Translations under genes and position numbers: made by a program | The notes under the pieces: generated by a model | Database searches by the model: none | What the model was told of the DNA's origin: nothing | Seen by the model: only the letters and a program-made list of their open reading frames with translations | Part shown: positions 7,491-22,030 of the stretch, piece after piece | How the letters are laid out: each line of letters begins with the position of its first letter | Position numbering within the stretch: position 1 is the first letter of the stretch | Source of the DNA: a virus | Reading direction: 5' to 3' (one strand) | IMG/VR virus record: IMGVR_UViG_3300029263_000582 | DNA: 44,692 nucleotides

Positions 7491-7744
7491 CTAGAGGCTA
7501 GGGGTTATGGGACTTGCAGAAATGTTAGAGGTGCTATGCACCCCACCCCGACAAGCAAGTAAAACCCTAGGGTGCCCCTAAGCTGCTAGAGTACCCCCCG
7601 TCAACCTTCTTAGGAGCCTAGCCGTAAGGCTGTCGGGACGTAAGGCCATCAAGGGGGCTAAACGTATAGCAGTGTATACCACTGTACTTCTAGAAGGCTA
7701 GATGGCTGGATTGCTAGAGGGCTTAAGGGTTAGACGGTTAGAGG
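7491..7744. repeat. Cluster of degenerate YTAGAGG-type repeats (iteron-like)
   Basis: CTAGAGG at 7491, CTAGGGG at 7498, TTAGAGG at 7525, CTAGAGT at 7586, CTAGAAG at 7690, CTAGATG at 7698, CTAGAGG at 7714, TTAGACG at 7730, TTAGAGG at 7738. All are in the same orientation in an ORF-free, visibly G+C-richer stretch. Confidence 0.6.
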
Positions 7745-7803
7745 GGGGGATGGGTATGTGCCTAGCGGCACGGATAGATAACCTTCTAGGTATCTAGGCT
7801 TAT

Positions 7804-7835
7804 ATACGTCTAAGCGTATGGACGTCTATACGTCT
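7804..7835. repeat. Three closely spaced ACGTCT repeats
   Basis: ACGTCT at 7806-7811, 7822-7827 and 7830-7835, two of them as ATACGTCT. The related 16-mers TAAATAGCGTCTTGCT (7911-7926) and TAAATAACGTCTTGCT (8025-8040) follow in an A+T-rich stretch. Confidence 0.65.
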
Positions 7836-8016
7836 TTAACTTTATTATCTGTAGTCTATTGACTGCCTAAGGTTAGTATGCTATTCGTGCGCATGCGGAC
7901 TATCTATAGCTAAATAGCGTCTTGCTGGTGTTTAACTTATTTAATCTTATTTCTCTTTATGAATCAGGCACTTATAAATTAATTAGTAGTTATTTCATCT
8001 TTTTTGCATTTAATAC

Positions 8017-8045
8017 TTGCAACTTAAATAACGTCTTGCTATTAT
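8017..8045 (+). promoter_or_regulatory. Sigma70-like early promoter
   Basis: TTGCAA (8017-8022), 17-nt spacer, TATTAT (8040-8045), with an A+T-rich upstream region. Confidence 0.5.
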
Positions 8046-8156
8046 TTCTACATCGAAACGGAACAGCGTATCGAACCTTAAGTTTAACTAGTGACGAAGC
8101 TTAGTATTAGCCCTTTAAGGCATCTAAACAACTTCTAAGAACTGTATCGAATTAGG

Positions 8157-8185
8157 TTGACAACGTTCTAACGATTATGTATTAT
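8157..8185 (+). promoter_or_regulatory. Strong sigma70-consensus early promoter
   Basis: TTGACA (8157-8162), 17-nt spacer, TATTAT (8180-8185). A TCGCT-GAGAT-AGCGA hairpin lies at the predicted 5' end of the transcript. Confidence 0.65.
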
Positions 8186-8709
8186 GAACTTAATCGCTGA
8201 GATAGCGACACGGATTACTTACTTAGGGGGCATGGTCTGCCTCTTACAGCTCCCCGCTTGAGCAACTAAAGACTAGGACGGCTAAGTTTAAATACTAGTC
8301 TGTCGGGTTCGCTAGATTCCTACGCTACACATTACATCGTGTATGTTTAGGCAGCCAAGCTCGATAGATGCAAGTCCCAATAGGTAATACGTTAATTCGT
8401 TCTTCCCGTACCTATACACCTCTAATGGTGGCCAGCAGTGGCTTAGCTAACGCTCATAACCTGCAATAAACGTGAACCAATGGCAACATTGGGGAGTAAA
8501 AGGGAAGTAAGCAAAGCAACGTTGGTTAGTGCATAAGGCTATAAGTCTACGATGTACGTGCTAACGGGTAACGGTCTAGCAAGCTGTTACTGCTTTGTGT
8601 ATAGCGGACTAATTAGTTAATAAGTCAAGCTCATCTATACGGTGGGCTTTATCATATTAACTGGCTAACAGCCTACTATTAAACAGCTCATCGAGCTAAG
8701 GAAAATACT

Positions 8710-12064: not shown

Positions 12065-12234
12065 TCATTACATTAGCGGCAGCTATTATCTTTATGATAA
12101 CGATAACCGTGTACATAGTACGTCTAGTATGGGAAGTCTTAACAGACATAGCCGCTAGGTGTGGCCCTTGGTACGCTAGCTTAGCGTTATTATTATTCTT
12201 ATCAGCAGTAGCATTTATATCTCATACGACTTAG
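12055..12234 (+). CDS. Hypothetical 59-aa two-TM protein (not in track)
   Basis: Hand translation: MEVIITLAAAIIFMITITVYIVRLVWEVLTDIAARCGPWYASLALLLFLSAVAFISHTT. It overlaps the previous stop. Confidence 0.5.
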   Translation: MEVIITLAAAIIFMITITVYIVRLVWEVLTDIAARCGPWYASLALLLFLSAVAFISHTT

Positions 12235-12242
12235 GAAACAAC

Positions 12243-12653
12243 ATGGATTTATCTAATCAATTAGTTAATAACAACGTAGCTGTATACGGTACACTCCGTG
12301 CAGGCTGCGGTAATCATCATATCTTAGAAGGGTTAACGTTCAAGCGTGATGTTATCCAAGGCTTTAAGATGTACGACCTCGGCGGCTTCCCTTATGTGGT
12401 ACATACAGGAGACCATGACGACAGCATAGCAGTAGAGGTGTACGAAGTACCTGACTATGACACAGCCCGTCGTCTTGACGGCCTTGAAGGTTATCACCAT
12501 ACACAGGGGTTCACTGGATTCTATAACCGAATCAAGGTACGTACTGCACTAGGAACAGAGGTGTACCTGTACGTATTCCCTCAGCATGAAGGGGAAGACG
12601 AGATAGAGTCAGGTGATTGGGTGTACCATACTAACCAGCGAGGTTGGCTGTAA
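12243..12653 (+). CDS. Gamma-glutamyl cyclotransferase-like (GGCT/AIG2 family) protein
   Basis: VAVYGTLRAGCGNHH, GFPYVV, VEVYEV and LDGLEGY match the YGTL...G / LD.LEG signature of the family. Confidence 0.8.
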   Translation: MDLSNQLVNNNVAVYGTLRAGCGNHHILEGLTFKRDVIQGFKMYDLGGFPYVVHTGDHDDSIAVEVYEVPDYDTARRLDGLEGYHHTQGFTGFYNRIKVRTALGTEVYLYVFPQHEGEDEIESGDWVYHTNQRGWL

Positions 12654-18383: not shown

Positions 18384-18601
18384 TTATATACACATCACTT
18401 ACTTGCAAGCCATGCAAGGAACTTAAAGAGGAGCTCAAGGGGTACGACGTACAACCTGAGTACGTAACCTTACCTAACCCAGAGGTTGACCATGCTGCAC
18501 TAGGTATACGTACTGTACCTACTATGATTCATGGTAACTACTTCAGGTCGGGGTACGATAATATTATAGGATACGTACAAGAGAACTACGAGGAGGTATG
18601 A
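18380..18601 (+). CDS. Glutaredoxin/thioredoxin-fold CxxC protein
   Basis: TTG start (TTGA overlap, AAGGA RBS). IIYTSLTCKPCKELKEEL followed by VPTMI is typical of a small glutaredoxin-like fold. Confidence 0.6.
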   Translation: MIIYTSLTCKPCKELKEELKGYDVQPEYVTLPNPEVDHAALGIRTVPTMIHGNYFRSGYDNIIGYVQENYEEV

Positions 18602-18675
18602 TGTTCGAGAACCTTTATGATAAACACCCACCACCTAAGAAGAAACCTGTTCAACCTAAACCTAAGGAGGACTAA
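18598..18675 (+). CDS. Possible 25-aa coupling micro-ORF
   Basis: MMFENLYDKHPPPKKKPVQPKPKED. It bridges the gap exactly, with ATGA and TAATG overlaps. It may only serve translational coupling. Confidence 0.25.
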   Translation: MMFENLYDKHPPPKKKPVQPKPKED

Positions 18676-19615
18676 TGGCTGGTGTACAGATAGATAGTAT
18701 ACCTCATTCCTGTGGAGGTAGTACTAAGGTCTTCGATGACCAAGGTAAGATAACAGGGTACTGCTTCAGCTGTGGTACGTTCGACCCTGACCCTTATAAA
18801 GATAAGCCCGAAGGGTACAAGCCACCTGAACCTAAGCGTCAGTCAGCTGAGGATATACAGGAAAAGATTAATGAAATCAAAGAGCTAACAACTGTTGATG
18901 ACACAGCCCGTAAGCTAGGAGCTAAGTCCCTTGGTTACTTCGGTATCAAGACTCAGCTCAGTGAGTACGACGGCTCAACAATCACAGCTAAGTTCTACCC
19001 TTATACAACTGACGGTGTGCTGACTGCATGGAAGTGCAAGACTCACGACAAGAAGTTCTTTAGTATAGGAGACATGAAGAACTGTGACCCATTCGGTTGG
19101 GAGCAGGCGATGCGTTCCGATAACTACACCCTGTTCATAACAGAGGGAGAGGATGACGCGGCTGCTTTACTTAAAGCCTTGATGCCTAACTGGAACAAGG
19201 ATAAACCTCCTGCTATTATCAGTACATCCTCTGGTGCAACAGGGGTTAAGAGTATTACTCGACGTGCTGATACTATTAACCGTAGGTTCAAGCAGGTAGT
19301 ACTGGTCTTCGACCAAGATGATGCAGGTGCAGCAGGGGCAAGGAAGGTAGCAGGTCTCTTAGAGAACTGCAAGGCAGCATCCTTTGAACTCAAGGACGCT
19401 AACGACATGGTCAAGGCAGGGCGAGGCGACGAGCTAGCTAAGGCTGTGATGTACGAAGGTAAGCCTATGGTATCAGGTAAGTGCGTCCGCTCTTCTGATG
19501 CATGGCACTTAGCTGAGGCTAAGGTAGAGTGGGGGCTTGACTGGCCTTGGCCTACGATGACAGAGAAGACACGAGGACGACGACGAGGGGAGGTGTATTA
19601 CTTCGGCTCCGGTGT
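18675..19615 (+). CDS. Primase-helicase (T7 gp4-like), exon 1
   Basis: Zinc-finger cysteines (HSCGG...CFSCG). TOPRIM motifs FITEGEDDAAAL and VLVFDQDDAG. The ORF runs into the helicase P-loop (EVYYFGSGV) and then hits a stop inside the intron. Confidence 0.85.
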
Positions 19616-19926
19616 TTGTAATTAAGCATCATTCAACCGTGAGGTTGTCTAAAGAACTACGTGAACTCAGGGGAACTCTAGAACAGACAATCCTGAGCGA
19701 AGCCTTGAGATTAGTTTTATGTAGGAAAACAGTAAGACACCTTACACATAAGTAAAGGTTCTAATCTAAGGAACGTGCAACGACTATCCCGTAAGGGAGT
19801 ACACTCAAGTGAGTGGAAGCGCGTAGCCCTCAGAAATGAGGTGATGATATAGTCTAGTCTGCATGGGGACATGCAGCAGTTCATAAGAGAACGGGCTAGG
19901 AGTAACGACCCTAGTCGAATGTAACG
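19616..19926 (+). ncRNA. Group I intron 1 (ORF-less, resembles the T4 td intron, 311 nt)
   Basis: P1: 19611-GGUGUUU pairs with AAGCAUC-19630, with a U19615.G19626 wobble. GGGGAAC...AGACAAUCC core. P7: GACUAU (19782-87) with AUAGUC (19849-54) inside GAUAUAGUC. CUGCAUG-GGGA-CAUGCAG hairpin (19859-76). Terminal G at 19926. Stops in all frames. Confidence 0.8.
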
Positions 19927-20449
19927 AAAAATGGGTAAGAGTGTAGTAGTTGACCAGATGGCTGCGTTCTTTGCAGCTACTCAGGATACACCTGTTATGC
20001 TAGTCAAGCCAGAAGAGTCAGTACCTAATACCCTTAAGCGTCTAGCTGGTAAGGCTGCACGTAAGGTGCTATGGGACCCGAAGGTTCCTTATGAGAAAGA
20101 GGACTTCGATAAAGGTAAAGCTATCATCGGCAGTAACGCTATAGTCTTTGACTCCTATCAGGAGATACGGTGGGCTGACGTTAAGAAAGAGATACGTACT
20201 AACGTAGAGGTATGCGGTGTAAAGGATGTGTTCCTTGACCCACTGACCTGTTTCACAGTAGGTATGCCTATGTCAGTAGCTAACGAAGAGCTTATCAGTA
20301 TAGCCTCAGAGATAGCTACTATGGCTAAGGAGCTGGACTTCACAGCTTACTTGTTCTGTCACCTTAACGCCCCTCAGTCAGGGCTACCTCACGAACGTGG
20401 TGGTGCAGTACAGAGTCAACAGTTCAGTGGCTCACGAGCTATGATGCGT
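19927..20449 (+). CDS. Primase-helicase, exon 2
   Basis: The junction gives ...FGSGV-KMGKSVVVDQ (P-loop). Walker B-like DVFLDPLT, then FCHLN and FSGSRAMMR. It ends on U20449. Confidence 0.85.
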
Positions 20450-20682
20450 CAAAGGCGCATGTAAAACCAATCTAATTCAGGGAAACCCTATCAGAAATGA
20501 GGGCAATCCTGAGCGAAGCCTTAACAGGAACGTGCAGAGACTATCGAAAGCAGAAGGTTAACACCTGAGAAGTGAGTAGAGTAGGGACGACAGGAGTTAT
20601 CCCGAAACGGTTGGGCTACGAGAGTAGCGTGATATAGTCCGATACTTGTAGTAATACAAGACGTAAGGATACTAACATATTG
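20450..20682 (+). ncRNA. Group I intron 2 (ORF-less, 233 nt)
   Basis: P1: 20444-AUGCGU pairs with GCGCAU-20460, with a U20449.G20455 wobble. It shares the CAAUCCUGAGCGAAGCCUU core with intron 1. P7: GACUAU (20539-44) with AUAGUC (20634-39). GCUAC-GAGA-GUAGC and CUUGUA-GUAA-UACAAG tetraloop hairpins. Terminal G at 20682. Confidence 0.8.
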
Positions 20683-20874
20683 TTTTGCCATCAGATGTGG
20701 GGACTAGAGGGTAACAAAGACCCTGACTTACCTGATGAACTACGTAACTGCCGTGACTTAGTGCTCCTAGAAGACCGTAACTTCGGCGAGTCAGGTCGTA
20801 TTAAGATGCAGTACCATTCAACTACAGGTTGCCTTGAAGAGATGCAGCCTAACTTTGGAGAGCACGATGATTGA
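20683..20874 (+). CDS. Primase-helicase, exon 3
   Basis: The junction SGSRAMMR-FCHQMWGLEGNKD aligns from memory with T7 gp4 [21 protein letters not shown]. Exons total 1656 nt, giving 551 aa in frame. Confidence 0.8.
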   Translation, partial: FCHQMWGLEGNKDPDLPDELRNCRDLVLLEDRNFGESGRIKMQYHSTTGCLEEMQPNFGEHDD

Positions 20875-21124
20875 ACTACTAGACGAGGACGACTACGGCT
20901 ATGAAGAAGGAGTTAGCTTCCCTATATACTTACCAGACTGTGCTCTACGAGCAGAGGGGGATGTCTTTATTGAGGTCGCAGGAGAGGCGCTTGGGGAGTT
21001 CTTCGAGAGAGAAGATACTTACCCCTTCCGTGTAAGAAGCGCTCGTATAGTACCAGAGCTACCTCTTAACCAAGTAATAGGCATCCCCTCGTTAAAGGGT
21101 AGGATATTTGGAGAACAAGAATGA
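20867..21124 (+). CDS. Small acidic-tailed protein, paralogue 2 of 3
   Basis: ATG at 20867 inside ATGATTGA, which overlaps the helicase stop. MIELLDEDDYGYEEGVSFPIYLPDC...PELPLNQVIGIPSLKGRIFGEQE. Confidence 0.75.
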   Translation: MIELLDEDDYGYEEGVSFPIYLPDCALRAEGDVFIEVAGEALGEFFEREDTYPFRVRSARIVPELPLNQVIGIPSLKGRIFGEQE

Positions 21125-21783
21125 CAGAAGTAGAGAGTAAGTTCCCTACCGTAATAACACCTGAGGTATTCAGCTCCTTGTACGAGACACTAGAGAAGGA
21201 TGTCCTCTGGTTCTGTGGCAACAAGGGTATACCTGCTGATGATAGACCTGATGTCTTTCATGACTGCATGGAGAAAGTATGGGCTGACCGTGAGATGTTC
21301 ACTCGTATGGGTAACGGTCGTTCTCCTGCTACCTTTATGTACCTTAAGTTACGTACAGCAGTAATGGAGTACTTTAACTGGGTTAACACAGGGACTAAGT
21401 CAGGTAACACACAGTCCAAGGTTAAGATTAATACGTACCTTAACTCTTACGAAGAGATGTTCCTAGGTTACACTGACTCAGACCAAGACACTAGCAGCTC
21501 TCTTAGTCTACAGTACGAGCAGCTTGAACCTCTGAACGTAGGGTACGCTGAGGTCTTTAAGATACTTGATAAGATGCCTGACCTTCTACGAGAGTACGTA
21601 GTCTGTAAGGCTGAGGTAGATACAGGCGGTACTAACAGCTCACGTAAGGAACTAACAGCCCTTATGTTAGAGCGTGGGCTACCAGTACGAATGCGTAACG
21701 AAGTCTCTAAGTTCCCTACAGTAGATGCTTATGAGTCAAGACTTCGTACGTTCTTAACATCTAAGGAGATACGGAATGATTGA
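21121..21783 (+). CDS. Possible sigma-70-family (ECF-like) transcription factor
   Basis: 220 aa. DVFHDCMEKVWADREMF...ATFMYLKLRTAVMEYF resembles sigma region 2. MPDLLREYVV...VDAYESRLRTFL resembles region 4. SKFPTV occurs at both ends. The motif match is weak and from memory. Confidence 0.35.
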   Translation: MTEVESKFPTVITPEVFSSLYETLEKDVLWFCGNKGIPADDRPDVFHDCMEKVWADREMFTRMGNGRSPATFMYLKLRTAVMEYFNWVNTGTKSGNTQSKVKINTYLNSYEEMFLGYTDSDQDTSSSLSLQYEQLEPLNVGYAEVFKILDKMPDLLREYVVCKAEVDTGGTNSSRKELTALMLERGLPVRMRNEVSKFPTVDAYESRLRTFLTSKEIRND

Positions 21784-22030
21784 GCTTAAGAGTAATCAGT
21801 CTTGGGGGTTCGAGGTTGGAACTAAATTCCCTGTGTACCTCCCTGATTGTGCAGTAGTAGAGAAGGATAGCAGGATGTCTTATATATTAGGAGAGTTCTT
21901 AGGCAGATGCTTCGCACCGACAGAGGTGTACGGTTTTACAAACGACCAGCTAAGAGTTGCCCCTGAACTGCCCCTTAACCACGTCATCGGCATACCATCG
22001 TTAGAAGGTAAGATATTCGAGGAGGATTAA
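21776..22030 (+). CDS. Small acidic-tailed protein, paralogue 3 of 3
   Basis: ATGATTGA overlap with the upstream stop. MIELKSNQSWGFEVGTKFPVYLPDC...PELPLNHVIGIPSLEGKIFEED. Confidence 0.75.
   Translation: MIELKSNQSWGFEVGTKFPVYLPDCAVVEKDSRMSYILGEFLGRCFAPTEVYGFTNDQLRVAPELPLNHVIGIPSLEGKIFEED

Follow-up and report, generated by a model that had tools for sequence, protein, structure and literature searches.

The closest described counterpart of the intron analysed here is found in Pseudoalteromonas phage RIO-1 (NC_021300 / KC751414; Zobellviridae, Melvirus), a phage that published work presents as an isolate. Its GenBank record carries an ncRNA feature labelled 'group I mobile intron' at 12129-12361 (233 nt), an annotation that, according to the record's own note, was based on BLAST similarity. 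The element interrupts the primase/helicase gene (RIO-1_18), the CDS of which is joined from two pieces. The 2016 paper on RIO-1 mentions introns just for a split tail gene, unrelated to this one.

Another system with a clear resemblance is the orf142 locus of the Staphylococcus phage Twort (AF132670), in which three RF00028 matches were found. Its introns, like the one studied here, are small, devoid of ORFs and located several to a single phage gene. We take them to belong to subgroup IA2, and their I2 to be the ribozyme for which a crystal structure exists. A Twort ribozyme is among the crystal structures listed in a review (PMC3984707), and self-splicing is documented for the Twort introns (Landthaler and Shub 1999, as cited in PMC11878797); for the intron of the present work it is predicted. 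The host gene is different, a virion gene in Twort and a helicase gene in our case, and so is the phylum of the host. Group I introns were also reportedly described, by Bonocora and Shub in 2004, in the DNA polymerase genes of T7-like phages. These share with ours the intron group, the insertion into a conserved motif, a host gene that is essential for replication and the presence in a podophage of the T7 supergroup; they differ in the gene concerned (DNA polymerase, not primase/helicase) and presumably belong to a different intron lineage.

We have analysed a stretch of 44,692 nucleotides (the window from here on) from a marine RIO-1-like Pseudoalteromonas podophage of the genus Melvirus, with about 98% identity to RIO-1 (97.8% in the gene region). 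Its primase/helicase gene is split at two points, and the second insert (intron 2) is an already known element. It is an exact copy of the intron annotated in GenBank for RIO-1, with 233/233 identical bases, the same boundaries, identical flanks, the same insertion site and the same host gene, the exons of which are about 97-98% identical to those of RIO-1. What distinguishes the two genes is intron 1 (19616-19926), present in the window and absent from RIO-1; intron 2 itself shows no difference. Such phage group I introns, genes with several introns and intron 2 itself have all been described before, and no new question is opened here. The locus is rather a textbook-clean case of a small ribozyme inserted into a conserved helicase motif, in which the choice of exon codons follows the presence of the intron.

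Location of intron 2 within the primase/helicase gene

The gene and its parts are as follows:

18675-20874, plus strand: T7 gp4-like DNA primase/helicase gene with Toprim and DnaB_C domains, in three exons
18675-19615, plus strand: primase/helicase exon 1
19616-19926, plus strand: intron 1, group I, 311 nt (Rfam, 75.5 bits), splitting the Walker A motif GSGV/KMGKS
19927-20449, plus strand: primase/helicase exon 2, 523 nt, ending in ...GCU AUG AUG CGU, of which the last 6 nt are the 5' strand of P1
20450-20682, plus strand: intron 2, group I, 233 nt, with neither an ORF nor a P2 (from the RF00028 match, the identity to RIO-1 and the intron-less alleles)
20683-20874 including the stop, plus strand: primase/helicase exon 3, encoding FCHQMWGLEGNKD...GEHDD followed by a stop, and comprising the latter half of helicase motif 4 plus the C terminus

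The sequence-only reading of this DNA had proposed a group I intron at 20450-20682, and the Rfam covariance search agreed with it. The match to RF00028 (20380-20661) scored 57.9 bits, against a gathering cut-off of 50, with an E value of 3.1e-12. Only two RNAs reached the Rfam gathering threshold in the whole window, both of them RF00028, the other one being at 19606-19876. Rfam places P1/P2 inside the exon (20380-20460), but the intron-less alleles and the RIO-1 boundaries led us to prefer a P1 at 20444-60. The 5' third of the Rfam alignment was pushed into the exon, by our reading because of an expected P2, an element absent from intron 2.

On the unspliced strand the gene appears broken. 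The ORF list has a plus-strand ORF at 19931-20464 that closes with ...FSGSRAMMR-QRRM-stop, the ending that the earlier reading had given for the helicase ORF, and a short downstream ORF at 20680-20874 that begins as (TTG)FCHQMWGLEGNKD.... The same list contains no plus-strand ORF of at least 30 aa within 20450-20682. A minus-strand ORF at 20521-20691 has no Pfam match and was taken as a mechanical ORF. A scan of 18400-21300 for promoters and terminators gave no excess over shuffled sequence.

The last base of intron 2 is G20682, followed by TTTTGCCAT. The terminal G and the exact splice sites deduced in the earlier reading coincide with those annotated in RIO-1. Joining 20449 to 20683 is in frame and gives ...FSGSRAMMR/FCHQMWGLEGNKD, and the ligated RNA of exons 2 and 3 is predicted to read ...ATGATGCGT-TTTTGCCAT... 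across the junction. The proposed in-frame ligation has natural counterparts in three relatives without the intron. Phage KZY1 (PQ867853, Melvirus) encodes a primase/helicase of 553 aa that is unbroken at this point (...FSGSRAMMRFCHAMFGLEGNKD...), and the same holds across junction 2 for L006 and L007, which are IMG/VR contigs. When 19615 is also joined to 19927, the spliced gene has 1656 nt, i.e., 551 codons plus the stop; we have recomputed this total, which the earlier reading had given with both introns removed.

With the Pfam DnaB_C match (residues 294-460) ending before junction 2, we have used the structures of T7 gp4 as a reference for this region. The spliced C-terminal half aligns with 1cr0, 1e0j and 6n7i gap-free across the junction (fsgsrammr/fchqmwglegnkd), as expected from the collinearity with T7 gp4 claimed in the earlier reading, and the residues that flank the splice site correspond to Q494 and L495 of T7. 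The intron is thus inserted at a codon boundary, at a position that we take to be inside helicase motif 4, presumably the motif of the classical T7 mutant positions R487, G488 and S496. In T7, motif 4 and the C terminus are needed. The identical intron is located in the only primase/helicase gene of RIO-1, an isolated phage, and would have to be removed in vivo if these regions are needed there as well; this is the strongest indirect argument for activity of the intron.

A way to obtain evidence on the intron from outside its own sequence is to compare the exon codons that border it. The four alleles that carry the intron are those of the window, RIO-1, HSd1-k141_2165608 (PQ867849; HSd1 from here on) and the IMG/VR contig IMGVR_UViG_3300042549_003140 (L005), and all four have the junction codons GCTATGATGCGT/TTTTGCCA, i.e., CGT/TTTTG. 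The exon strand of P1 (ATGCGT) and the start of exon 3 (TTTTG) are accordingly kept in 4/4. The three intron-less alleles all have different, synonymous codons, reading ATGAGA/TTCTGT, ATGCGG/TTCGCT and ATGAGA/GCTTGT, that is, with ATGAGA or ATGCGG in place of the P1 exon strand and TTCTG, TTCGC or GCTTG at the exon 3 start, changes that would break P1 and P10. Since the exon codon choice tracks the presence of the intron, it is independent evidence for both pairings. Taken as a whole, these data leave us close to certain that the 233-nt insert at 20450-20682, by which the primase/helicase gene is interrupted, is a genuine group I intron of the self-splicing type; its splicing, and its catalytic activity in vivo, are predicted from its anatomy.

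As a consequence for annotation, the primase/helicase should be described as one protein of 551 aa encoded by three exons and not as three ORFs. Gene callers will otherwise repeat the three-ORF error made in the HSd1 record. In that record (PQ867849, 740-3500) GenBank lists three helicase CDSs and an 'endonuclease', where there is really a single gene interrupted by two group I introns, with the HNH homing endonuclease encoded in the second; the start codon of the annotated ORF40 coincides with the final three nucleotides of the intron.

The sequence divergence between the window and RIO-1 is unevenly distributed along this gene. While 46/1652 exon positions differ (2.8%), none of the 233 intron positions does (P about 0.001-0.002 for a uniform rate), and the identical tract around intron 2 (20420-20711, 292 nt) is the longest in the gene. 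The lack of differences in the intron could reflect either a very strong constraint on the whole RNA or a recent exchange or conversion between phages, despite the lack of an endonuclease.

Secondary structure, subgroup and wider intron family

The helices assigned to intron 2 are these:

20444-20460, plus strand: P1, 5' exon AUGCGU (20444-49) with guide GCGCAU (20455-60), from the sequence and the MFE fold
20450-20454 with 20683-20687, plus strand: P10, guide CAAAG with the exon 3 start UUUUG, a pairing proposed from reading the sequence
20467-20614, plus strand: P3, CCAAUC (20467-72) with GGUUGG (20609-14), 6/6 pairs compensatory and 100% of cells paired
20477-20533, plus strand: P4-P6 domain, from the covariation alignment
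20477-82 with 20507-12, plus strand: P4
20486-89 with 20500-03, plus strand: P5, extended by CA/UG with a GAAA loop
20513-15 with 20531-33, plus strand: P6
20519-21 with 20526-28, plus strand: P6a, UAAC loop (the loop in which the HNH ORF of the relatives sits)
20539-20639, plus strand: P7, the guanosine-binding helix, GACUAU (20539-44) with AUAGUC (20634-39), predicted to form a pseudoknot with P3
20550-20603, plus strand: region of P7.1 and P7.2
20550-51 with 20572-73, plus AGGU (20555-58) with ACCU (20563-66), plus strand: P7.1, covarying
20584-87 with 20600-03, plus strand: P7.2, GGGA with UCCC, covarying
20615-20628, plus strand: P8, GCUAC-GAGA-GUAGC, 5/5 pairs compensatory
20645-20660, plus strand: P9, CUUGUA-GUAA-UACAAG, 6/6 pairs compensatory
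20661-20682, plus strand: 3' tail ACGUAAGGAUACUAACAUAUUG, ending at G20682, from the alignment with Twort orf142 I2 and I3

P1 has a U20449.G20455 wobble and a CAAAG loop, and places the 5' splice site after U20449. All these elements of P1, together with P7 and the two hairpins now named P8 and P9, had been located by the sequence-only reading and can be read in the sequence exactly where it put them. The unconstrained MFE fold recovers P1, P3, P4, P5, P6, P7.2, P8 and P9 (z = -2.27).

For the covariation analysis we have used nine compact members of the family, the window included, aligned with MAFFT (alignment A1). RNAalifold recovered P3, P4, P5, P6, P6a, P7.1, P7.2, P8 and P9 from these nine sequences. 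It also returned an invariant ACU/AGU helix (A1 columns 96-98 / 137-139), which we replaced with the P7 pseudoknot. P7 was added as a pseudoknot before the pairing statistics were computed, and as controls the partners were slid by one to three columns and 500 shuffles were carried out. Standard pairs occupied 96.5% of the pairing cells in the nine members vs. 33-42% in the slid controls, and changes on both sides were found in 32/45 core pairs vs. 9-14; none of the 500 shuffles reached any of the observed pairing or covariation measures. Covariation extends to all the pairs of P3, P6a, P8 and P9. P7 is a perfect helix of 6 bp that matches the Rfam consensus (AGACUA...AUAGUC) and is invariant in 9/9 aligned sequences, which makes covariation uninformative for it. 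Examples of the compensatory changes are provided by HSd1, in which P3 is CCUCUU/AGGAGG and P7.1 is CAUC-GUAA-GAUG where the window has AGGU-UAAC-ACCU.

P2 is absent from intron 2, in which merely six nucleotides (GUAAAA, 20461-66) separate P1 from P3. The introns of HSd1, L005 and another contig (L013) likewise lack P2, a peripheral element that is not part of the core. Neither HSd1 nor L005 conserves the candidates for P9.0 (GAUA at 20641-44 or 20668-71 with UAUU at 20678-81).

In the scheme of Michel and Westhof, subgroup IA is marked by two extra hairpins, P7.1 and P7.2, that follow P7 and precede the 3' strand of P3. Elements of the P7.1/P7.2 type are among the features that define the classes of group I introns (PMC3984707), and phage introns have traditionally been assigned to IA2 (PMC11878797). 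Because both elements are present and because the Twort orf142 introns are similar, intron 2 is classified from its structure as a subgroup IA type, IA2-like.

The similarity to the Twort introns is extensive. Both I2 and I3 of orf142 align with intron 2 along J3/4-P4, P4' to P6, J6/7-P7, P7.1, P7.2, J8/7-P7' and the 3' tail. Specifically, the common stretches are J3/4-P4 (UAAUUCAGGGAA), the 3' strand of P4 into P6 (GCAAUCCUGAGC.AAGC), J6/7-P7, P7.1, P7.2, GUGAUAUAGUC and the tail AAGGAUA...UAACAUA(A)UUG. The Twort introns also have a P2 and a complete P9.1 hairpin, whereas intron 2 has neither; its tail (AAGGAUA-CUAAC-AUAUUG) resembles the Twort tail AAGGAUAGGAGUAACGAACCUAUUCGUAACAUAAUUG minus most of the P9.1 hairpin. 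Without P2 and most of P9.1, splicing of intron 2 may be reduced or assisted by a protein. BLAST searches with intron 2 also returned Staphylococcus phage introns.

The core AGACUAUCGAAAG...AGUAGAGUA...GAUAUAGUC marks a large family of phage introns, for which a first pattern scan of IMG/VR gave 11 contigs and a second one at least 120. Members of this wider family have the same core strings and helix plan as intron 2; they differ in that they are located in other genes and have different guides, and many have a P2, a longer P5, P6 or P8, or endonuclease ORFs. Among the matches listed are the terminase of Rheinheimera phage Barba19A, where the intron is annotated as an intergenic gap, the DNA polymerase of Felixounavirus and lysis or tail genes of Staphylococcus phages, and many members among the at least 120 contigs are not annotated as introns. 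A metagenome scan with the 18-mer CAAAGGCGCATGTAAAAC gave 19 matches, 18 of which were due to chance. The other one (L145) is an intron, the same as that of contig L137 (IMGVR_UViG_3300030100_000325, 7615-8330). In L137 and L145 this intron, which is related to intron 2 and has its own ORF, is located in a family A DNA polymerase gene, and its guide and 5' exon end are identical to those of intron 2 (CTATGCGT/CAAAGGCGCATGTAAAAC), i.e., one guide is used at an unrelated site.

Proposed splicing pathway and alternative readings

The anatomy of intron 2 suggests a conventional pathway. In the pre-mRNA the guide CAAAG-GCGCAU (20450-60) would pair with the 5' exon AUGCGU to form P1, with U20449.G20455 as the wobble, and a free exogenous guanosine bound in P7 (20539-44/20634-39) would attack the bond after U20449. 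G20682 would then occupy the guanosine site while CAAAG pairs with UUUUG of exon 3 (P10), and the 3'-OH of U20449 would attack the bond after G20682, joining the exons into ...SRAMMR-FCHQMW.... With intron 1 also out, the product would be the primase/helicase of 551 aa. If the RNA were left unspliced, translation would stop five codons into the intron (QRRM-stop).

A different reading is that the insert is the relic of a dead intron and that the helicase is made in pieces, with a C-terminal fragment of 64 aa translated from the TTG at 20680 and AAGGA (20665-69) acting as ribosome-binding site. An in-frame start-type codon does end the intron in 3/3 variants at this site (window, UUG; HSd1, AUG; L005, GUG), with a GGA about 10 nt upstream of it in all three, and GenBank has three separate CDSs for HSd1. 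However, the AAGGAUA...UAACAUA(A)UUG tail is also found in Twort orf142 I2 and I3, within an unrelated gene, which makes the motif a part of the intron rather than a signal for translation. Several other members of the family, in unrelated genes, also end in NUG, and the spacing of 10 nt combined with a TTG is weaker than the 4-7 nt and ATG of the neighbouring genes. The sequence-only reading had itself raised translation from TTG 20680 as the competing outcome, which the match of the AAGGAUA...UAACAUAUUG tail to that of Twort orf142 does not favour. A split gene would moreover be broken in the middle of helicase motif 4, continuous in T7 gp4 and in three relatives, while every core helix of the insert is intact and covarying (apart from P7, intact but invariant and thus silent on covariation). 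The codons compatible with P1/P10 are held in the intron-bearing alleles alone, something that is sensible only if splicing or homing matters. All in all, a helicase made in pieces seems to us extremely improbable. That the resemblance to an intron is fortuitous and the insert an ordinary intergenic spacer between two genes has even less to recommend it: the stop and start codons at the edges of the insert would fit, but the Rfam E value of 3e-12, the compensatory changes in 32/45 pairs and the fact that the flanking ORFs are the halves of one conserved domain refute it and reduce its probability to practically nil.

Removal of the intron could also be conditional or alternative and serve as a regulatory device, with exon 1 joined directly to exon 3 in a shifted frame, which could yield a product of 321 aa containing the primase alone (...GSGV-FAIRCGD-stop; 20683-20709 in exon 3). 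Four pairs are possible between the end of exon 1 (GUGU, 19611-19615) and the intron 2 guide (GCGC, 20455-20458); exon skipping between tandem group I introns was reported for Twort orf142, going by a title cited in PMC11878797, and exon skipping is also discussed in PMC10136302. Yet for the phage of the window this is a purely theoretical parallel to Twort. The cognate P1 is stronger, with six pairs vs. four, and RIO-1, otherwise about 98% identical, has intron 2 alone, so that a mechanism based on two introns is not needed. We therefore regard a regulatory role of this kind as very improbable and retain removal of a group I intron by splicing as the reading of this locus.

Relatives at the same site and neighbouring observations

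The same-site introns of HSd1 (L002, 2501-3314; 814 nt) and L005 (790 nt) share with intron 2 the insertion site, the guide and the junction codons. The core of the HSd1 intron is about 80% identical to that of the window, with compensatory changes in P3, P7.1 and P9. The main difference resides in the P6 loop, which in HSd1 and L005 contains an ORF of 183-186 aa, its last codons running through P6', P7 and P7.1, and in the window is a loop of 4 nt (UAAC). The HSd1 ORF matches the Pfam domains HNH_3 and NUMOD4 and is 53% identical to that of L005 over the full length. No homologue of either ORF was detected by tblastn in the entire 44.7-kb window (E above 0.5). Since intron 2 has no endonuclease ORF, the label 'mobile' given to it in RIO-1 is not supported for the copy in the window.

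The distribution of the intron at site 2 is patchy, being present in the window, RIO-1, HSd1 and L005 and absent in KZY1, L006 and L007, and the intron-less KZY1 is the one closer to the window in exon 2 (76% vs. 57-64% at the aa level). Three states are thus seen among the relatives, namely with an endonuclease, without it and without the intron. The simplest history would be that intron 2 derives from an HNH-bearing homing intron, the endonuclease having been lost in the lineage of RIO-1 and the window. An HNH homing endonuclease such as the one encoded by the same-site relatives would explain the arrival of the element at a conserved site, and the mixture of the three states among Melvirus agrees with the usual cycle of gain and loss of homing elements. 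A more elaborate scenario, that intron 2 is being exchanged among co-circulating Melvirus (for example by an HSd1-like HNH endonuclease acting in trans during co-infection) and/or that the tandem introns allow exon skipping towards a primase-only protein, is in our opinion unlikely. If the exon skipping were true, it would represent a ribozyme-based route to two products from the gp4 gene.

As for intron 1, RIO-1 lacks it and reads GSGVKMGKS unbroken, and this intron-less allele fixes its boundaries at 19616-19926. Of the 46 positions at which the exons differ from those of RIO-1, four (19610, 19613, 19927 and 19930) fall within 6 nt of this site, a clustering that looks like the result of co-conversion or of the need to fit P1 and P10. 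Downstream of the gene, between the helicase and a sigma-factor gene, there is an ORF of 85 aa (20867-21124) that RIO-1 does not have. With 48% identity to the ORF at 21776-22030, which is the homologue of RIO-1_20, it is a local paralogue, neither of the two having a Pfam match. Both HSd1 and L005 also have an intron at about the place of intron 1, and the copy in L005 contains an ORF of 172 aa.
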